Sequence record: NC_028780.1
From: Escherichia phage slur07
Direction: 5' to 3' (one strand)
DNA length: 64,000 nt
Shown: piece by piece, positions 7,642-14,774 of the stretch
How positions within the stretch are numbered: the stretch's first letter is position 1
How the letters are laid out: each line of letters opens with the position of its first letter
The notes under the pieces: model-generated
The model's input: only the letters and a program-made list of their open reading frames with translations
Databases searched by the model: none
What the model was told of the DNA's origin: nothing
Made by a program: the position numbers and the translations under genes

Positions 7642-7643
7642 TA

Positions 7644-7667
7644 GGGAGCCTTCGGGCTCCCTTTTTT
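7644..7667 (+). terminator. rho-independent terminator
   Basis: gggagcc-ttcg-ggctccc hairpin followed by T6. Confidence 0.75.
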
Positions 7668-7691: not shown

Positions 7692-7758
7692 GTTTACAAG
7701 CATAAAGCTTTATGGTACTATACAACTATCAACTGATACGGATTTGGAGAATAAAATG
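7692..7758 (+). repeat. PeSL-like early promoter/leader cassette (copy 2)
   Basis: GTTTAC 7692-7697, TGgTACTAT -10 7716-7721, leader ctatacaactatcaactgatacggatttggagaataaaATG, near-identical to 34913-34979. Confidence 0.75.
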
Positions 7759-8724
7759 AAAACTGTAACTATCAATAAGGGTATCTACTTCGGTAAAGAA
7801 ATCTCTGGAACTTTTGAGCTCTTAGGTGAATGGTTCCCAGATAATGCTCCGGTAGATGCGCAAGGAGATGGTAAAGTTTTTGTTGAAATTGACGGTAAAC
7901 GTCGCGGTGTTTGGGTTTACAAATCAGACATTTCATATGATGGTGTAAAAGTTGAAGAAGTTAAAGAATCGTATGAAGATATGAAAACCCGCATTAATAA
8001 AAGATTTAATGTTATGGGAATGATGACGAATGGTATTATTAATGGAAATATTCGTTCATTAATTATCTCTGGTGCGGCGGGTATTGGTAAAACGTATTCT
8101 TTAGATAAAGCTTTAAATAAAGCAAATGATATTGGATACATTGAATATAAAAGCATTAACGGTAAAATCTCCGGTATCGGTCTTTATGAACAGCTTTGGA
8201 ATAATCGTGAAGAGAATTCTGTCCTTTTGATTGATGATGTGGATGTTTTCTCTGATATGGACATTCTTAATCTTCTGAAAGCTGCTCTGGACACTGGAGA
8301 GACCCGTAAAGTCTGCTGGAGCACCGCATCTTCTTACTTAGAAGAAAAAGGCATTGAGCGTGAGTTTGAATTTAAAGGAACGATTGTTTTTATCACAAAC
8401 GTTGACATTGACCGCGAATTAGACCGTGGTACTAAACTTGCTCCACATTTACAAGCATTAGTGTCCCGCTCAGTTTATTTGGATTTGGGTGTTCACACTA
8501 ATGAAGAAATTATGGTCAGGGTTGAAGATGTTATTCTTTCAACTGACATGATGCAAAAGCGCGGTCTTTCTGATGAAGAAACTTATAAAGCATTATCATG
8601 GATGAAAGTCAATGTTAATCGTTTACGCAATGTTTCACTGCGTACTGCTCTTTATCTTGCTGACTTTATTATGACCGACAAAAATGGTTGGGAAGAAATT
8701 GCTGAGGTTACTCTTCTGAAATAA
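7756..8724 (+). CDS. P-loop NTPase (AAA-like ATPase)
   Basis: 322 aa from ATG 7756; Walker A GAAGIGKT, Walker B VLLIDDVD, sensor-like FITN. Confidence 0.65.
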   Translation: MKTVTINKGIYFGKEISGTFELLGEWFPDNAPVDAQGDGKVFVEIDGKRRGVWVYKSDISYDGVKVEEVKESYEDMKTRINKRFNVMGMMTNGIINGNIRSLIISGAAGIGKTYSLDKALNKANDIGYIEYKSINGKISGIGLYEQLWNNREENSVLLIDDVDVFSDMDILNLLKAALDTGETRKVCWSTASSYLEEKGIEREFEFKGTIVFITNVDIDRELDRGTKLAPHLQALVSRSVYLDLGVHTNEEIMVRVEDVILSTDMMQKRGLSDEETYKALSWMKVNVNRLRNVSLRTALYLADFIMTDKNGWEEIAEVTLLK

Positions 8725-8822: not shown

Positions 8823-9128
8823 ATGATGTTATACTCAAAGGCTCGTGAAATTTATGAAACTAAAATTAAAGAAGCAGTATTTCAGTTCGCAACAACGATG
8901 CGATGGACAAATGATTGGGAGTATTCAAAAAATCATAAGAAGTCCTTGGTGACAAGAAAGGCTCATATGTTAGTGTTAATAGACCGTGAGCAGATTAAAG
9001 CCCGAGAAGCCCTCCAGAATCATAAAAAGGCTGCCTTTGAATGGTTTATGGATAACACTGCTCCTGAGACTAAGAAAGCAGTGAGCGCGTGGTTCAGTGG
9101 AAAAAATTGTGAAAGAAGTTTCTTTTAG
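8823..9128 (+). CDS. hypothetical protein
   Basis: about 101 aa; SD ggagg 8816-8820; start ATG 8823 or 8826. Confidence 0.4.
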   Translation: MMLYSKAREIYETKIKEAVFQFATTMRWTNDWEYSKNHKKSLVTRKAHMLVLIDREQIKAREALQNHKKAAFEWFMDNTAPETKKAVSAWFSGKNCERSFF

Positions 9129-9130
9129 TT

Positions 9131-9191
9131 GTTTACAAGACCGTTCCTCTGTGGTACTATACAACTATCAACTACGGAGGAACAGAAAATG
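9131..9191 (+). repeat. PeSL-like early promoter/leader cassette (copy 3)
   Basis: GTTTAC 9131-9136, TACTAT 9155-9160; arms GTTCCTC 9143-9149 / GAGGAAC 9177-9183 can pair, enclosing -10 and SD; ATG 9189. Confidence 0.75.
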
Positions 9192-9716
9192 AATGCTAAA
9201 GATATTTTCAACTTGGTAAACTACAATGATGGTAAATTTAAATCTGAAGCTCAAAGCAAGTTCTTTAATGACATCTCAATTGGAGGTGAAATCACTGTTG
9301 ATGGAGGACAAATTTACAAATCACGTTGGAATTGGATCGTTATTATTGATGAGATTGGTATTGTAGAAATTTACAAAAATACGAATAAAAATCGTACATT
9401 ACACTGGTCTCGTGATACTAACGAACAGTACAAAAAGGATAAAGCATCTAAATTATCTCGTGTAACTCAAGAAGATATTGAGTTCATCAAGAAAGATATT
9501 TTGATGTATGATAACTTAATTGCTGAAGAGCAAGCTGTTATTGATAAATTTGATGAGATTAAAGCTTCTCGTGAAATTCCTGATTTTATGAAAGAATCAG
9601 TAAATGAACGATACACTCTCATTTCAGAGCGTATTGAAACTTACAAAAAGCAAAGAGCTGAACGCCAGAATACTCTTCGGAAGTTTGAAGAACGGTTAAA
9701 GACGGTACTCGCATAA
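9189..9716 (+). CDS. hypothetical protein with C-terminal amphipathic tail
   Basis: 175 aa; C-terminal charged helix ...RQNTLRKFEERLKTVLA similar in character to the next four large ORFs. Confidence 0.5.
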   Translation: MNAKDIFNLVNYNDGKFKSEAQSKFFNDISIGGEITVDGGQIYKSRWNWIVIIDEIGIVEIYKNTNKNRTLHWSRDTNEQYKKDKASKLSRVTQEDIEFIKKDILMYDNLIAEEQAVIDKFDEIKASREIPDFMKESVNERYTLISERIETYKKQRAERQNTLRKFEERLKTVLA

Positions 9717-9718
9717 CC

Positions 9719-9742
9719 GCTTTATACCAAGGATGGTATAAT
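9719..9742 (+). promoter_or_regulatory. putative MotA-dependent middle promoter
   Basis: cGCTTTA (MotA-box-like) 9719-9724, 12-nt spacer, TGGTATAAT with -10 9737-9742. Confidence 0.45.
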
Positions 9743-9771
9743 GGTTCTAAGCCCTTTTAATTGAGATTATT

Positions 9772-10179
9772 ATGAAACAGTTGATAATTAAAAGATTGAA
9801 TTTATTGATATGTTGTTTATGTATAGTAATTGCATATGGTTATTACGCAATTAATGATTATATGCATTATAAAGATTATGATGTTACTGTAGTTAATACC
9901 TTTACAGGAACTCAAGGAAAGGGGTCTAGTTTATCGTTTATTGCCGTATATGAACTAAATGACGGTTATAGATTTAGCGAATATATTTCACTGGAGATGT
10001 ATTCTTCAATAGAAAAAGGTGATAATATTACTGTAAGTTTACGTCCTTTCGACGTAAAACAGACATTGTTTGATAATATTGTTTGGTTCTTTGGAATGGT
10101 ATTAGTTCAATCTGTGTGTGGTGCTTATATAGTCTGTTCCATCTTATTCTGTATATTTAGTAAAATTGAAATTGAGTGA
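9772..10179 (+). CDS. membrane protein
   Basis: 135 aa; N-terminal TM (LNLLICCLCIVIAYGYYAI) and C-terminal TM (IVWFFGMVLVQSVCGAYIVCSILFCIF). Confidence 0.5.
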   Translation: MKQLIIKRLNLLICCLCIVIAYGYYAINDYMHYKDYDVTVVNTFTGTQGKGSSLSFIAVYELNDGYRFSEYISLEMYSSIEKGDNITVSLRPFDVKQTLFDNIVWFFGMVLVQSVCGAYIVCSILFCIFSKIEIE

Positions 10180-10186
10180 GGAAAAT

Positions 10187-11074
10187 ATGTCAGTAGTAAT
10201 TAATAATGTCAATGCAGTAATTAAATCTTTAGTTAATAAAAAATTGAATGAATGGACTGTACTTCGTCGTGGAGAGCCAGATAAATTTTTTCATAGATTT
10301 AACCCAACTTTGGATTTGAATGTTATTGACAGAGATGTTCATGCTGAAATATTAGATAAGTTTAAAGTTGATATTGGGTTTGGATTAGATAAACATTTAC
10401 AACGAACAAACGGGTCTGGAATGGGTTTATCTAATCGCATCATGAAAGCCCTTAATAAAATTGGAGCGTTGTCTCGTATTAATGCGAGTGAAATCCTTCG
10501 CAATTATAATAAAGGATATGACCTTTATGGTCGACTAATGCCGAAATTATCATTCGATCAAATGATTGCGGATTTGTGGGAAAATCAACGACGATTATTA
10601 GCATTAGGCGCTCGATTAGCTAAAGGTCTAGATAAACAAATGATTTTTAAGACCAATAATACAGAAGACCTTAAATGCTTTAAATTTAGTATTCGCGGCG
10701 ATGATTATTATATCAGAGCTCGCTCTACAGATTATGTTAATATGGGGCATCATCTCTGTTTAGCTTTTGAAGTTTTAAAAGAAGCTGGAACGTTAGAATA
10801 TTCATCTGGTGCTAAATGCCCGATTGGTTCAAATTGCATTTTAATTTATCGCCCGGATGAATCCAGTTTAACTAAATTTCCTACAAAACCTGTACCAGTT
10901 CGTAGTAATGAAAAACATTCTGAGCAAATTGATTATTTTAATAAGCAAATTGAAGAGCTGAATATTTCTATTCAACAATATGACGATGAAATTTTCAGAC
11001 TATCTGGACTGAGTAGTAAAGCTAAATCTGAACGTGAAAAATTAATTAAAATTGTTGATTTACTTAAATCTTAA
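10187..11074 (+). CDS. hypothetical protein, tandem array member 1
   Basis: 295 aa from ATG 10187 (TGAGGAAAATATG context); C-terminal tail ...KAKSEREKLIKIVDLLKS. Confidence 0.5.
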   Translation: MSVVINNVNAVIKSLVNKKLNEWTVLRRGEPDKFFHRFNPTLDLNVIDRDVHAEILDKFKVDIGFGLDKHLQRTNGSGMGLSNRIMKALNKIGALSRINASEILRNYNKGYDLYGRLMPKLSFDQMIADLWENQRRLLALGARLAKGLDKQMIFKTNNTEDLKCFKFSIRGDDYYIRARSTDYVNMGHHLCLAFEVLKEAGTLEYSSGAKCPIGSNCILIYRPDESSLTKFPTKPVPVRSNEKHSEQIDYFNKQIEELNISIQQYDDEIFRLSGLSSKAKSEREKLIKIVDLLKS

Positions 11075-11082
11075 GGAACACC

Positions 11083-12102
11083 ATGAAAACTCGTTCTCAA
11101 ATTGAAGATATGGTTCGTAATGCCAGCTATACTCGTGATGTTATGACATTTTTGTGCCAAAATAATTTAGACCCTGATAAAGTTAATCGTGATATTCACT
11201 TTAAATATATGAATAGCAGTGAATGGTTACGTCATTTTAGTAAAGCGGGGTATATTACACAAATGACTGCTCGTGAGCAGCTCACCGATTTCTGTAAAAC
11301 TATTGATTATAAAAATCCTCTATTTGTTCAAGGTGTTGGTCAGAGTAAGGTCGATTTATCATCTGGATTTTTCAATCCAAATCATTATCGTATTGAATGG
11401 AGATTTATTGCTCTATTCCGTAAACAATTAAAGCAAATTTTGTCGACGGCTAGTCGATTAAAAGGTTCTGATATTAACTTAAAGAATCTGAAATTTGATG
11501 GTTATACTCTTCAGATGGAAGTAAGACCATTAAAAGAAAATAATAGAACTGCACGAATTAGCTTTAAACCTAATACAAAAAATTCTCTTTCAATTTGTGA
11601 ATGCCTTAAATCACAGTTGACAGAAGCATTTAAGTATATGGATGTTGTTGCTGCTGTTCAATCTAAGATTTTACCTCGTTTTGAACGATTTAAGTTAGAT
11701 ACAACATCATATGAACTTGATATGATCGTTTCATTTAAATACGATTTTTTGAGAAAGGACGAAGTCCCGCAAGAGAAAAAGCAGGAAGTGCAAGATAACT
11801 TAAATTTATCCAATTACTTATCAAACGATCCTAAATTTTGGATGTATAGTTCAGGTAATAATGATGCATGGAAATTCAATAAAGTGAATTTTCTTCCTGT
11901 TGAAAATCCGAGTCTTAAACCTGTTGAAAAATGGCACGCGGATGCGATTGAGAAGTCTATCAAGGCAGTAGATGATGAACTCGTTAAAGCGACCAATGAA
12001 GTGCTAGAAGCTGAAAAGGCGTTAGAACAAGCTCAAGAAAAAGTAAAAAATCTCACGAAGCAACGTTCTAAACTGAACAATGCACTAAATGCACTGAACT
12101 AG
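11083..12102 (+). CDS. hypothetical protein, tandem array member 2
   Basis: 339 aa; N-terminus MKTRSQIEDM; C-terminal tail ...KQRSKLNNALNALN. Confidence 0.5.
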   Translation: MKTRSQIEDMVRNASYTRDVMTFLCQNNLDPDKVNRDIHFKYMNSSEWLRHFSKAGYITQMTAREQLTDFCKTIDYKNPLFVQGVGQSKVDLSSGFFNPNHYRIEWRFIALFRKQLKQILSTASRLKGSDINLKNLKFDGYTLQMEVRPLKENNRTARISFKPNTKNSLSICECLKSQLTEAFKYMDVVAAVQSKILPRFERFKLDTTSYELDMIVSFKYDFLRKDEVPQEKKQEVQDNLNLSNYLSNDPKFWMYSSGNNDAWKFNKVNFLPVENPSLKPVEKWHADAIEKSIKAVDDELVKATNEVLEAEKALEQAQEKVKNLTKQRSKLNNALNALN

Positions 12103-12131
12103 TTTACTTTGCCACAAGGATGTGGTATAAT
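12102..12131 (+). promoter_or_regulatory. T4-type early promoter
   Basis: GTTTAC 12102-12107, 18 nt, TGTGGTATAAT (-10 12126-12131); same promoter variant as 57128-57157. Confidence 0.7.
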
Positions 12132-12159
12132 GTTCTTACTTTCTACTGAGGAGATTATT

Positions 12160-13161
12160 ATGACTCGTAACGAATATATCAAATCATTCAATAGCGTTAT
12201 TGATGATAAAGCTATACCGATGTTTGGTCAAAATATCGTTCTTTCTATTATCAATCAATGGCTCAATAGTGTTGATGCAAGTATTGTTTCTTCTACTAAA
12301 TTTATTCATGAAATTCGTAAAATTTCTAGCCGTGTAGATAAAGATGTTATCAAGAAAACTTTTAAAGAGTCTCGTCTTCTTTCATATTTGGTTAATCGGG
12401 ATATTCTTGGTAATTTTGGGAAAGAAATTAAACGAACCAAAGATGTAGTAGGATATAATTGGTTCGGTGATGTTAATTCTTATCATCTTAATAATAAAGA
12501 AGACCCTGAGAATATTTTTACTCGTCGTTGGATTAGTAATTTCAGACTTTTCAAAGGACAAATTCTAAAATCAGCTTCTAAATTATGTTATGGCGATTAT
12601 CGTCAAATTCATCCTTTGGCTTCTGATATGATTATCGTAAAAGAATATGAGCTTGATGAAAATAAAGTAGCTATTTTTGTGAATTATGGATTTTTTACAC
12701 CAAACGCTAACCAAAAGAATATTAATAAATTTTTCTCAATTGCTAGCACTATAACTCGTCAGTTAGAGACTGCATTACTTTGTATGGAAACAGTAGAAAA
12801 TATTCATACATATCCTTTTAAGAATATATGCGGATGGGAAGGATATAAAATTGTAATTAGTCTTCGTGAAGTGAAATGTGCTTATTCACCGACTGATAAA
12901 GAAATTTACCAACAAAAATGTGAAGAAATTGTGAATACTCCTAAAGAAGAAACTACACTTGAGGAACTAATGGATAATCTTGATGATTCGCCTGAATCGG
13001 TAGAAATTCGTCCAGAAGTTATTGCATTAGAAAAAGCTTATAAAGAAGCTCTAGAAATTTCTAATAAAGCGCAGAAAGAATATGAGCAGGCTAAAAAGAT
13101 TTGGGAAGAATCCGTTAATCGTCTTGATCGTCTTGAACAAGCTTTACAGTTAATTAAGTAA
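12160..13161 (+). CDS. hypothetical protein, tandem array member 3
   Basis: 333 aa from ATG 12160; track start 12109 translates the promoter; C-terminal tail ...SVNRLDRLEQALQLIK. Confidence 0.5.
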   Translation: MTRNEYIKSFNSVIDDKAIPMFGQNIVLSIINQWLNSVDASIVSSTKFIHEIRKISSRVDKDVIKKTFKESRLLSYLVNRDILGNFGKEIKRTKDVVGYNWFGDVNSYHLNNKEDPENIFTRRWISNFRLFKGQILKSASKLCYGDYRQIHPLASDMIIVKEYELDENKVAIFVNYGFFTPNANQKNINKFFSIASTITRQLETALLCMETVENIHTYPFKNICGWEGYKIVISLREVKCAYSPTDKEIYQQKCEEIVNTPKEETTLEELMDNLDDSPESVEIRPEVIALEKAYKEALEISNKAQKEYEQAKKIWEESVNRLDRLEQALQLIK

Positions 13162-13213
13162 TTTAAAGCCAAGGATGGCTCGGAGTATAAACCATTAACC
13201 AAGTGAGAAGAAT

Positions 13214-14143
13214 ATGAAAACTCGTAAACATTATATTGATTATTTTGACAGTCTTATTACTAAACATCGTAATTATCAGATAGGACACAGAGCAGTAATC
13301 AATAATATTCTTCGTGATTTCCTTCAATATGTTGGTCAGGAAAATCATATCTGTAAAGATACTCAAACCGCTTATTCTCATTCGTTAGGCAATTTGCTTG
13401 AATGGTTTAAACGTTCTCGTATGTTATCTTCTACTGTAGCTCATGAGAACATTAAAAACTTTATGAAGCCGAGCTTCATTAAATCTGAGACATCTATAAC
13501 CGATTTGGTTGAATTTACTATTGTTAATGATGTTAAAAAGACTCATTTGGCTGATTGGTTTTCTACCATTCCTGAAACTAAATTTGCTGATAAATTTGCT
13601 TGTCAATTCAATGACCAAGTGAATATGCTTTTTAAGCATGCTCGCAAACTATTTACCGCGGGCGATGACCGTACAAATACAGTTCATGTTAAGGACTGGG
13701 TTATTGCTGATGAAGTAACACACAAGCCAGGTGGTTCATCAGTATTAATTAATATCCAGGTTCCTTATTATTACTCACGTAATCTTGGCACCATGACAGC
13801 TAAAGAAATTAATAAGCACAACAAAACTATTCGTTCGTTGTCTTATAAACTCCGCATGATGTTAAAAATTATGGACGTAGTGGAAATGTATGACGAAACC
13901 GAAGATAATGGTTCAATGTTATACAGTTCACGCATTCTAATTAAACTGAAGAACCCTAATACATATAAGACAGTTGTAAAAGAGCCTAAAGTAGAAAAGG
14001 TTGATAATCTGAGTGAAGAACGTGAATATCTCAATGCCCGTTTGATTGAAGTTGAAGCCCAAATTACAGAACACGCCAAATTGTTAAAAGCTCTTAATGC
14101 AAAAGCAAATGGTTTACGTAATGCTATTGAGGTATTGAAATGA
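13214..14143 (+). CDS. hypothetical protein, tandem array member 4
   Basis: 309 aa; N-terminus MKTRKHYIDYF; C-terminal tail ...[15 protein letters not shown]. Confidence 0.5.
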   Translation: MKTRKHYIDYFDSLITKHRNYQIGHRAVINNILRDFLQYVGQENHICKDTQTAYSHSLGNLLEWFKRSRMLSSTVAHENIKNFMKPSFIKSETSITDLVEFTIVNDVKKTHLADWFSTIPETKFADKFACQFNDQVNMLFKHARKLFTAGDDRTNTVHVKDWVIADEVTHKPGGSSVLINIQVPYYYSRNLGTMTAKEINKHNKTIRSLSYKLRMMLKIMDVVEMYDETEDNGSMLYSSRILIKLKNPNTYKTVVKEPKVEKVDNLSEEREYLNARLIEVEAQITEHAKLLKALNAKANGLRNAIEVLK

Positions 14144-14529
14144 AAAAGCGTTTATTAGAAGACATTGCAGCTTCAAGTAATTCCAGTTTAATTAAAATTA
14201 TTATGGCTGGTGAGGAAGATGATATGGAAATGCGTGGAAAGATTCATGGCTGCGACGATTTAGATTTTAAACCTCCAGCATGGGATGCTATTATGGCTAT
14301 GGTTGAACGACGTGAAAGAGCTTCTAAAAACGTTCCTAATTGCCCTGAATGCGGTACTGAACAAGTTCAATTGATTAACTGGCGTAAACCAGAGCTTGAA
14401 TATAAATGCCGTCAATGTAAACATAAATTCAGTAAGCATGCTCCGGAAATGGTTAAATTGCCTGACTCTACTGAGTTCTTTAAAGAACTTGTGAGTGTTC
14501 AACCAATGCCTAATAATATTTTGGATTAA
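14140..14529 (+). CDS. zinc-ribbon protein
   Basis: 129 aa; CPECG...(17)...CRQCKHKF four-Cys ribbon. Confidence 0.45.
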
Positions 14530-14531
14530 AA

Positions 14532-14774
14532 ATGACCAAGCGTAAAGAATATATGGAGGCTGCTGAAAAGGCAGTCCGTGAATTAGCAATAGCTTATTAT
14601 AATGAACATGGTAAATTTCCTGATAGATACAGCGTGCTTAAATCTGCTTTAACTCGTTCATATAAAAATATGCTATCAGAAGTAAGTGATATTATATACA
14701 AACATAAAGAACAAACGGGCCAAAGTCTTGATTACGACGAGACTTTTAAACAAGTACTAGGAATTAAGGAATAA
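14532..14774 (+). CDS. hypothetical protein
   Basis: 80 aa ORF immediately upstream of nrdC. Confidence 0.4.

Follow-up and report, generated by a model that had tools for sequence, protein, structure and literature searches.

Remote tandem paralogs of the anti-Dsr1 gene nrdC.5, with a conserved C-terminal heptad-repeat helix, in the T4-like phage slur07

The closest described counterpart of the genes analysed here, nrdC.3 to nrdC.8 in a 64,000-nucleotide (nt) stretch of Escherichia phage slur07 (NC_028780.1; this whole stretch is hereafter the window), is the anti-Dsr1 factor NrdC.5 of phage T4 (DUF7235, PF23882). A T4 deletion clone fails on ECOR17 owing to Dsr1, a Sir2-type defence protein, and MG1655 carrying dsr1 can again be infected once T4 nrdC.5 is expressed (Srikant, Guegler and Laub, eLife 2022, PMC9391042). 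Other defence systems are also antagonised from this neighbourhood, as nrdC.1 inhibits Septu (HIDEN-SEQ preprint, bioRxiv 10.1101/2025.11.20.689424) and gp49.2 of T6 inhibits OLD (PMC13096335). In the supplementary tables of the HIDEN-SEQ preprint, nrdC.3 to nrdC.8 are given as non-essential in T4. DSAD1, the anti-DSR2 protein of SPbeta, is likewise a phage protein countering a defence-associated sirtuin and provides a plausible analogy for the action of NrdC.5 on Dsr1; it belongs to another phage lineage and targets DSR2 rather than Dsr1 (PMC10973363, PMC10981675), and the likeness is by analogy only. Phage tail-terminator proteins (lambda gpU-like; e.g. 6tba_4A, 3fz2_A, 8bcp_C) may be a remote structural counterpart for the core α/β domain of the proteins described below. 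The literature searched yielded no paper on what nrdC.3, nrdC.4 and nrdC.6 do or on how NrdC.5 acts.

The stretch from 9000 to 14600 of the window matched 742 phage records and was 98% identical to Escherichia phage Kelasse (Tequatrovirus); judged by sequence, the window is a Tequatrovirus (T4-like) genome. Gene identities were assigned by comparison with the T4 reference annotation and Kelasse, and synteny and identity with the T4 nrdC.3-.8 genes extended across the open reading frames (ORFs) under study. The preliminary description of this DNA had reported a tandem array of five ORFs (identified here as nrdC.8, nrdC.6, nrdC.5, nrdC.4 and nrdC.3) with divergent bodies and similar C-terminal tails. 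All five are present, each being an annotated T4 gene, and the tails quoted, like the MKTR or MTRN starts given for three of them, had been read correctly. The supposed divergence of the bodies did not survive pairwise and profile alignment, which instead revealed homology between those of nrdC.3, nrdC.4 and nrdC.5, and probably nrdC.6. On these alignments nrdC.3, nrdC.4 and nrdC.5 are full-length remote paralogs, and nrdC.6 is probably a member of the same family. The corresponding features are as follows (aa, amino acids; AF2, AlphaFold2 model).

10187-11074, plus strand: nrdC.6, 295 aa; probably belongs to the paralog family as its fourth member; phrog_2257; homologs carry PF26899
10898-11071, plus strand: C-terminal helical region of nrdC.6, about residues 238-295; boundary estimated from family alignment and heptad analysis
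11083-12102, plus strand: nrdC.5, 339 aa; orthologous to the anti-Dsr1 factor of T4; Pfam DUF7235, 411.6 bits
11935-12099, plus strand: C-terminal predicted coiled-coil helix of nrdC.5, about residues 285-339; about seven clean heptads; boundary estimated
12160-13161, plus strand: nrdC.4, 333 aa; helical N-terminal domain, α/β domain, disordered linker and C-terminal helix; phrog_1435; homologs carry PF26897
13012-13155, plus strand: C-terminal helix of nrdC.4, residues 285-332 (AF2); conservation in the family is highest over the last 20 aa
13214-14143, plus strand: nrdC.3, 309 aa; close paralog of nrdC.4; phrog_1435
13997-14140, plus strand: C-terminal helix of nrdC.3, about residues 262-309; boundary estimated from heptad analysis

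The window nrdC.5 was 96% identical to T4 NrdC.5 over 100% of its length, with the same neighbours, and scored 411.6 bits against DUF7235 (cut-off 30), covering model positions 1-307 of 307; none of the other four ORFs matched this model. nrdC.4 and nrdC.3 aligned by BLASTP with 24% identity over 226 aa (expect value, E, 2e-5) and by hhalign (98%, E 8e-14), and both matched the phrog_1435 profile over their full length (E 6e-169 and 6e-115, respectively); the PF26897 assignment was made through homologs 87-97% identical that carry it. A merged nrdC.4 and nrdC.3 profile in turn matched the nrdC.5 family (hhalign, 93%, E 3e-7) over 237 collinear columns that included the tail. The simplest reading of the M-(K)-T-R N-terminus that they have in common is descent from one ancestor, though this last match began only at residue ~42. 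For nrdC.6, hhalign against the merged profile gave 29% in local mode (E 6e-4) and 74% in global mode (E 3e-6), the latter with 273 columns collinear from end to end, its local scores being weak overall (14-29%). The AF2 model of nrdC.4 also retrieved NrdC.6 of phage JS10, an ortholog of the window nrdC.6, from the BFVD database with Foldseek (E 2e-5, probability 1.0, template modelling scores 0.40/0.46). Within one genome, the identity between these remote paralogs of common architecture does not exceed about 24%. Since three, and probably four, of the proteins are thus collinear over their whole length, the tail appears to have been inherited rather than shuffled, which contradicts a model in which one C-terminal module was attached to N-terminal domains of unrelated origin. 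Sequence searches of Pfam, PADLOC and the PDB returned no functional match for four of the five proteins, the sole PADLOC match being one of the nrdC.4 tail to BrxC, coiled-coil only (E 0.0016), and no related solved structure was found in the PDB for nrdC.5 or its paralogs.

The AF2 model of nrdC.4, built on an alignment of 21 sequences with a mean predicted local distance difference test score (pLDDT) of 82.8, began with a helical N-terminal domain followed by an α/β domain; residues 270-284 (pLDDT <50) formed a disordered linker that led into an unbroken helix of 48 residues (285-332). In nrdC.5, the last ~50 residues formed about seven clean heptads (a = AILVLVRL, d = IVAAALLL), more than the minimum of four heptads with hydrophobic a and d positions asked here of a coiled coil; the corresponding nrdC.4 helix is 48 residues long. 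A heptad/amphipathicity score over the last 28 residues, a metric picked after the data had been seen, was computed for the 82 plausible genes of the window, where nrdC.5, nrdC.8, nrdC.3 and nrdC.4 ranked 1 to 4 and nrdC.6 ranked 9; these ranks are not independent, because three of the proteins are paralogs. Nevertheless, the amphipathic-tail feature is clearly concentrated at this locus.

The heptad phase relative to the C-terminus was common to nrdC.3, nrdC.4 and nrdC.5. When tail profiles of the families were anchored on the terminal LK and 21 ungapped registers were tried, offset 0 was the top register in all 6 pairs among nrdC.3, nrdC.4, nrdC.5 and nrdC.6. Column permutation gave p values from <0.0001 to 0.018 for these pairs, and permutation preserving the heptad class gave 0.02-0.17; much of the tail signal is therefore the heptad phase that the families have in common, to which conservation at specific positions (L-x-x-[AV]-[LI]-[EN]-x-L-K at the C-terminus) adds modestly. 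The looser motif L-x-x-[AVS]-[LI]-x-x-[LI]-K was seen in fixed register at the C-terminal heptad helix in all four families, as well as in distant members whose body similarity was undetectable (Acj61p120, ending LNKALEIMML, and Yersinia phage gp94, ending LQESLRTLK). BLASTP between tails was non-significant (E >0.7), and a strict C-terminal regular expression matched only nrdC.5 and nrdC.3, missing nrdC.4 and nrdC.6 because the window alleles have I or V substitutions. The last 20 aa were the best-conserved block in nrdC.4, nrdC.3 and nrdC.5, with identities of 0.86, 0.85 and 0.61 against 0.52, 0.65 and 0.42 for the respective bodies. Tail residues conserved across paralogs were mainly at heptad core positions (d, g, a, d), whereas the exposed positions differed between paralogs and were conserved within each family. 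Of the proposed similarity of the tails, what stands is that all five proteins end in amphipathic helices and that the likeness exceeds composition in nrdC.3, nrdC.4, nrdC.5 and nrdC.6 (register, p ≤0.018); it does not extend to nrdC.8 (p 0.28-0.61).

The nrdC.8 protein is, from its sequence comparisons and predicted fold, a separate and unrelated family, and its 'tail' would be one arm of an intramolecular hairpin. The two genes at the upstream end of the cluster are:

9189-9716, plus strand: nrdC.8, 175 aa; of a family separate from that of the other four; residues 1-74 predicted as a small α/β domain, helices 75-126 and 132-174 as an antiparallel coiled-coil hairpin
9411-9710, plus strand: helical hairpin of nrdC.8, residues 75-174 (AF2); its second arm is the tail of the preliminary description
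9772-10179, plus strand: nrdC.7, a predicted membrane protein of 135 aa between nrdC.8 and nrdC.6

With nrdC.7 intervening, the array of five is not strictly contiguous. We considered nrdC.8 as a truncated member of the nrdC.3-.6 family and rejected this possibility: hhalign did not exceed 1.5% even with a 33-sequence profile, the architecture of the AF2 model (two long helices, 75-126 and 132-174) differs, and the tail lies in a different register from those of nrdC.3-.6. Among 1.84 billion representative proteins, 37 relatives of nrdC.8 were found, conserved only in an N-terminal domain of ~95 residues (motif L..NNG.FKSEKQ..F) and with variable helical C-termini. The match of nrdC.8 to antiparallel coiled-coil hairpin proteins (CT398/HP0958, prefoldin, DksA) is one of generic hairpin only, and Pfam and protein searches identified no relative of known function for its N-terminal α/β domain (motif NNG-FKSEKQ). 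A paper on DRT1 treats nrdC.8 as a nucleotide reductase (PMC13275509), a role that the predicted fold does not support.

Searching with the nrdC.4 model in Foldseek retrieved uncharacterised proteins of ~300-370 aa from T4-like phages of Acinetobacter, Pectobacterium, Erwinia, Enterobacter, Serratia, Klebsiella and Aeromonas (E 1e-8 to 1e-4). Both matches in phage Acj61 of Acinetobacter, p120 and p121, are neighbouring genes and occupy the syntenic slot between nrdC and nrdC.10. These relatives and the Acj61 tandem pair point to nrdC.3-.6 as one old, highly divergent and tandemly duplicating family of the Straboviridae. With profiles from E. coli phages, hhalign detected neither the Acj61 members nor some of those from Yersinia phages, in spite of the Foldseek matches. 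The family has four copies in Tequatrovirus and three each in Mosigvirus (nrdC.3-type present, nrdC.4-type absent) and in Gaprivervirus and Dhakavirus (nrdC.4-type present, nrdC.3-type absent). Between genera, the identity of nrdC.3-.6 was 21-51% (nrdC.6 29-51%, nrdC.5 23-28%, nrdC.4 44-51%), compared with 67-85% for the flanking nrdC.8 and nrdC.10. The window nrdC.3 allele was 99% identical to that of Kelasse, 77% to a Mosigvirus copy and only 60-62% to T4 and T6, whereas its flanking genes were 91-100% identical to T4/T6, except for the downstream nrdC.2 (78%); divergence of this gene between near-identical flanks points to allelic replacement or inter-genus exchange of nrdC.3 alone. Its last 15 residues were the same in the diverged T6 allele, and over these residues the Mosigvirus copy differed only in lacking the terminal K.

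Rearrangement of the family is frequent in nature. Manna_094 of Salmonella phage Manna (L013, 2715-3752) joins in frame the nrdC.6 body (residues 1 to ~265) to the nrdC.4 linker and tail (251-333), equivalent in the window to 10187-~10980 joined to ~12910-13161 with nrdC.5 deleted, and has a 21-nt microhomology at the junction (QQYDDEI / QQKCEEI); body and tail can thus be recombined and the hybrid persist in a viable phage. The metagenomic protein P0120 is a fusion of nrdC.5 (145-271) with nrdC.3 (129-309), and in NrdC.6 of Shigella phage Sf25 (P0122, 378 aa) residues 176-258 are duplicated internally in tandem. Phage ACG-C40 (L014, 3305-3716) has lost three family members through an out-of-frame deletion that runs from residue ~68 of nrdC.5 to residue ~238 of nrdC.3. 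Kelasse nrdC.5 (L002, 4584-5604) is annotated as two overlapping ORFs, probably owing to a frameshift.

Taken together, the account we consider rather probable is that nrdC.6, nrdC.5, nrdC.4 and nrdC.3 are tandem duplicates of one gene, with an inherited, oligomerising tail and with bodies directed against different immune proteins, nrdC.8 being unrelated. One ancestral gene, encoding a protein of ~300 aa, would have given rise to the four genes, and many T4-like phages (Straboviridae) have the family in the interval from nrdC to nrdC.10. Each copy is predicted to keep a common layout: the N-terminal domain is helical, an α/β domain comes next, and a flexible linker leads to one long heptad-repeat helix whose C-terminal end reads L-x-x-A-[LI]-x-x-L-K. 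The genes are accessory and non-essential, of predicted early or middle type, and they diverge much more quickly than the genes around them, with frequent fusions and deletions. NrdC.5, as published by others, neutralises the Sir2-type Dsr1, and the variable bodies of the other copies may recognise other host immune proteins. The conserved tail on its flexible linker would form a coiled coil that oligomerises the protein, which could provide avidity or match oligomeric defence proteins; a putative role of the tail as a coiled-coil oligomerisation element is what we infer from its sequence and model, and a contact of the tail with one common host partner is not favoured. Oligomerisation is preferred because the residues conserved across paralogs lie mainly in the heptad core while the exposed ones are paralog-specific. 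The suggestion of a diversifying anti-defence family holds in that a fast-diversifying accessory family sits in a counter-defence neighbourhood (nrdC.5 against Dsr1, nrdC.1, gp49.2; published work only), with nrdC.8 outside that family.

A number of observations weigh against this account. The near-invariant tail surface within each family could equally mean a specific binding partner, and the structure models are of single chains only, oligomerisation through the tail being something that we infer. A tail hidden Markov model (HMM) trained on four families never retrieved the tail of the omitted fifth, which indicates that so short and weak a motif is unsuited to detecting members. The membership of nrdC.6 relies on a predicted-structure match to an ortholog and on weak profile scores, Pfam and PADLOC returned no informative match for the function of nrdC.3, nrdC.4 or nrdC.6, and these three genes showed no significant fitness effect in the one HIDEN-SEQ host-comparison table for T4 that was consulted.

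The model put forward in the preliminary description was that unrelated effector domains had each gained a common C-terminal module docking all five proteins on one host or phage partner. All five do end in charged amphipathic helices ranking at the top of the window, conservation in nrdC.3, nrdC.4 and nrdC.5 is highest in the tails, and the in-frame hybrid Manna_094 shows body and tail recombined in a viable phage. We nonetheless hold this model to be very unlikely: the bodies of nrdC.3, nrdC.4, nrdC.5 and probably nrdC.6 are collinear homologs, making acquisition of a module unneeded, while the nrdC.8 tail is in another register, without significant similarity, and belongs to an intramolecular hairpin. 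Nothing found here shows a common partner reached through the tail, and cross-paralog conservation mainly at a and d fits a coiled coil better than a shared binding surface. At the opposite extreme, the tail likeness might be composition plus heptad periodicity, the five genes being just neighbouring accessory ORFs without functional link. The failure of the leave-one-family-out HMM, heptad-preserving p values of only 0.02-0.17 and BLASTP tail matches with E >0.7 all agree with this, and for nrdC.8 it is correct. For the family as a whole it seems quite improbable, given that C-terminal anchoring was the top register in 6 of 6 nrdC.3-.6 pairs (column-permutation p ≤0.018), that full-length homology has independent support from hhalign and Foldseek, and that the terminal motif recurs in distant members.

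A further alternative accepts the duplication and has the copies serve redundancy or dosage in one pathway (e.g. all acting against NAD+-depleting Sir2-type defences), or has them perform a host-takeover task unrelated to immunity. A phenotype is on record for nrdC.5 only (PMC9391042), the one HIDEN-SEQ host-comparison table consulted for T4 gives no significant effect for the other copies, and whole copies have been lost in the natural phages ACG-C40 and Manna without obvious cost. Simple redundancy is argued against by the low identity of the paralogs within a genome (≤ about 24%) and by the separate maintenance of each orthologous lineage across genera, and the surrounding genes have distinct, specific defence targets (Septu, OLD), all of which makes this alternative unlikely in our judgement. 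We also give an outside chance to the idea that the α/β domain of NrdC.3-.6 is a diverged copy of a virion tail-terminator-type protein serving as an early decoy, such that the paralogs would mimic structural proteins and occupy immune sensors without activating them (Dsr1 in the case of nrdC.5), the tail providing the oligomeric state; if so, the array would be an evolving library of structural-protein mimics.

Promoter-like signals, all consensus matches only, were found at three places of the cluster:

9132-9160, plus strand: early-type promoter-like site upstream of nrdC.8, GTTTAC-17-TGGTACTAT
9719-9742, plus strand: MotA-type middle-promoter-like site ahead of nrdC.7, GCTTTA, 12-nt spacer, TATAAT
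12103-12131, plus strand: T4 early-type promoter-like site ahead of nrdC.4, GTTTAC-17-TGGTATAAT

The last two correspond to internal promoters proposed at 9719-9742 and 12102-12131 and remain plausible as MotA middle-type and T4 early-type matches, the second being read here as 12103-12131. Directly upstream of nrdC.10 (7744-8724) there are a strong intrinsic-terminator-like hairpin at 7643-7662 (8-bp stem with 6 GC pairs, then a T run) and an early-promoter-like site at 7693-7721. nrdC.10 gave weak Pfam matches to AAA/STAND NTPase families (AAA_14, E 6e-5) and is far commoner than nrdC.3-.8, with 1310 phage records that include Vibrio, Aeromonas and jumbo phages. At the other end of the cluster, nrdC.2 (14140-14529) encodes 129 aa versus 104 aa in T4 and has weak zinc-ribbon matches, with CxxC...CxxC at residues ~66-98. 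In Mosigvirus JN02 (L006, 7253-7666), a membrane protein resembling nrdC.7 (39% identity) is encoded downstream of nrdC.2 instead of separating nrdC.8 from nrdC.6; its annotation reads 'thioredoxin'. T4-like phages of Klebsiella and Yersinia encode in the same region another conserved protein of ~262 aa (L009, 12286-13074; L010, 12630-13421), ending in FELAKDDKTHAFYKRPS, in which neither similarity to the nrdC.3-.6 family nor a helical tail was found. The GenBank 'thioredoxin' labels on the nrdC.3-.11 ORFs of T4-like phages were dismissed as name propagation from nrdC. The T6 record AP018814 calls these genes tail proteins, a label also set aside, as the annotation of that record is visibly unreliable (the gene at the nrdD position is, for example, called 'RNA ligase 1 and tail fiber attachment catalyst').

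The genes themselves and the function of nrdC.5 are already known, and the principle is not new, as tandem, fast-evolving clusters of phage anti-defence genes are well known. What appears undescribed in the literature searched is that these proteins form one family, that its tail is conserved and that it is widespread in the Straboviridae. Although T4 is the reference phage, most genes from nrdC to nrdC.11 are still labelled hypothetical or, wrongly, 'thioredoxin'. The comparison presented here defines a family across many genera of the Straboviridae and, if nrdC.3, nrdC.4 and nrdC.6 are indeed paralogous to the anti-Dsr1 gene nrdC.5, would provide three specific candidates for new counter-defence proteins.

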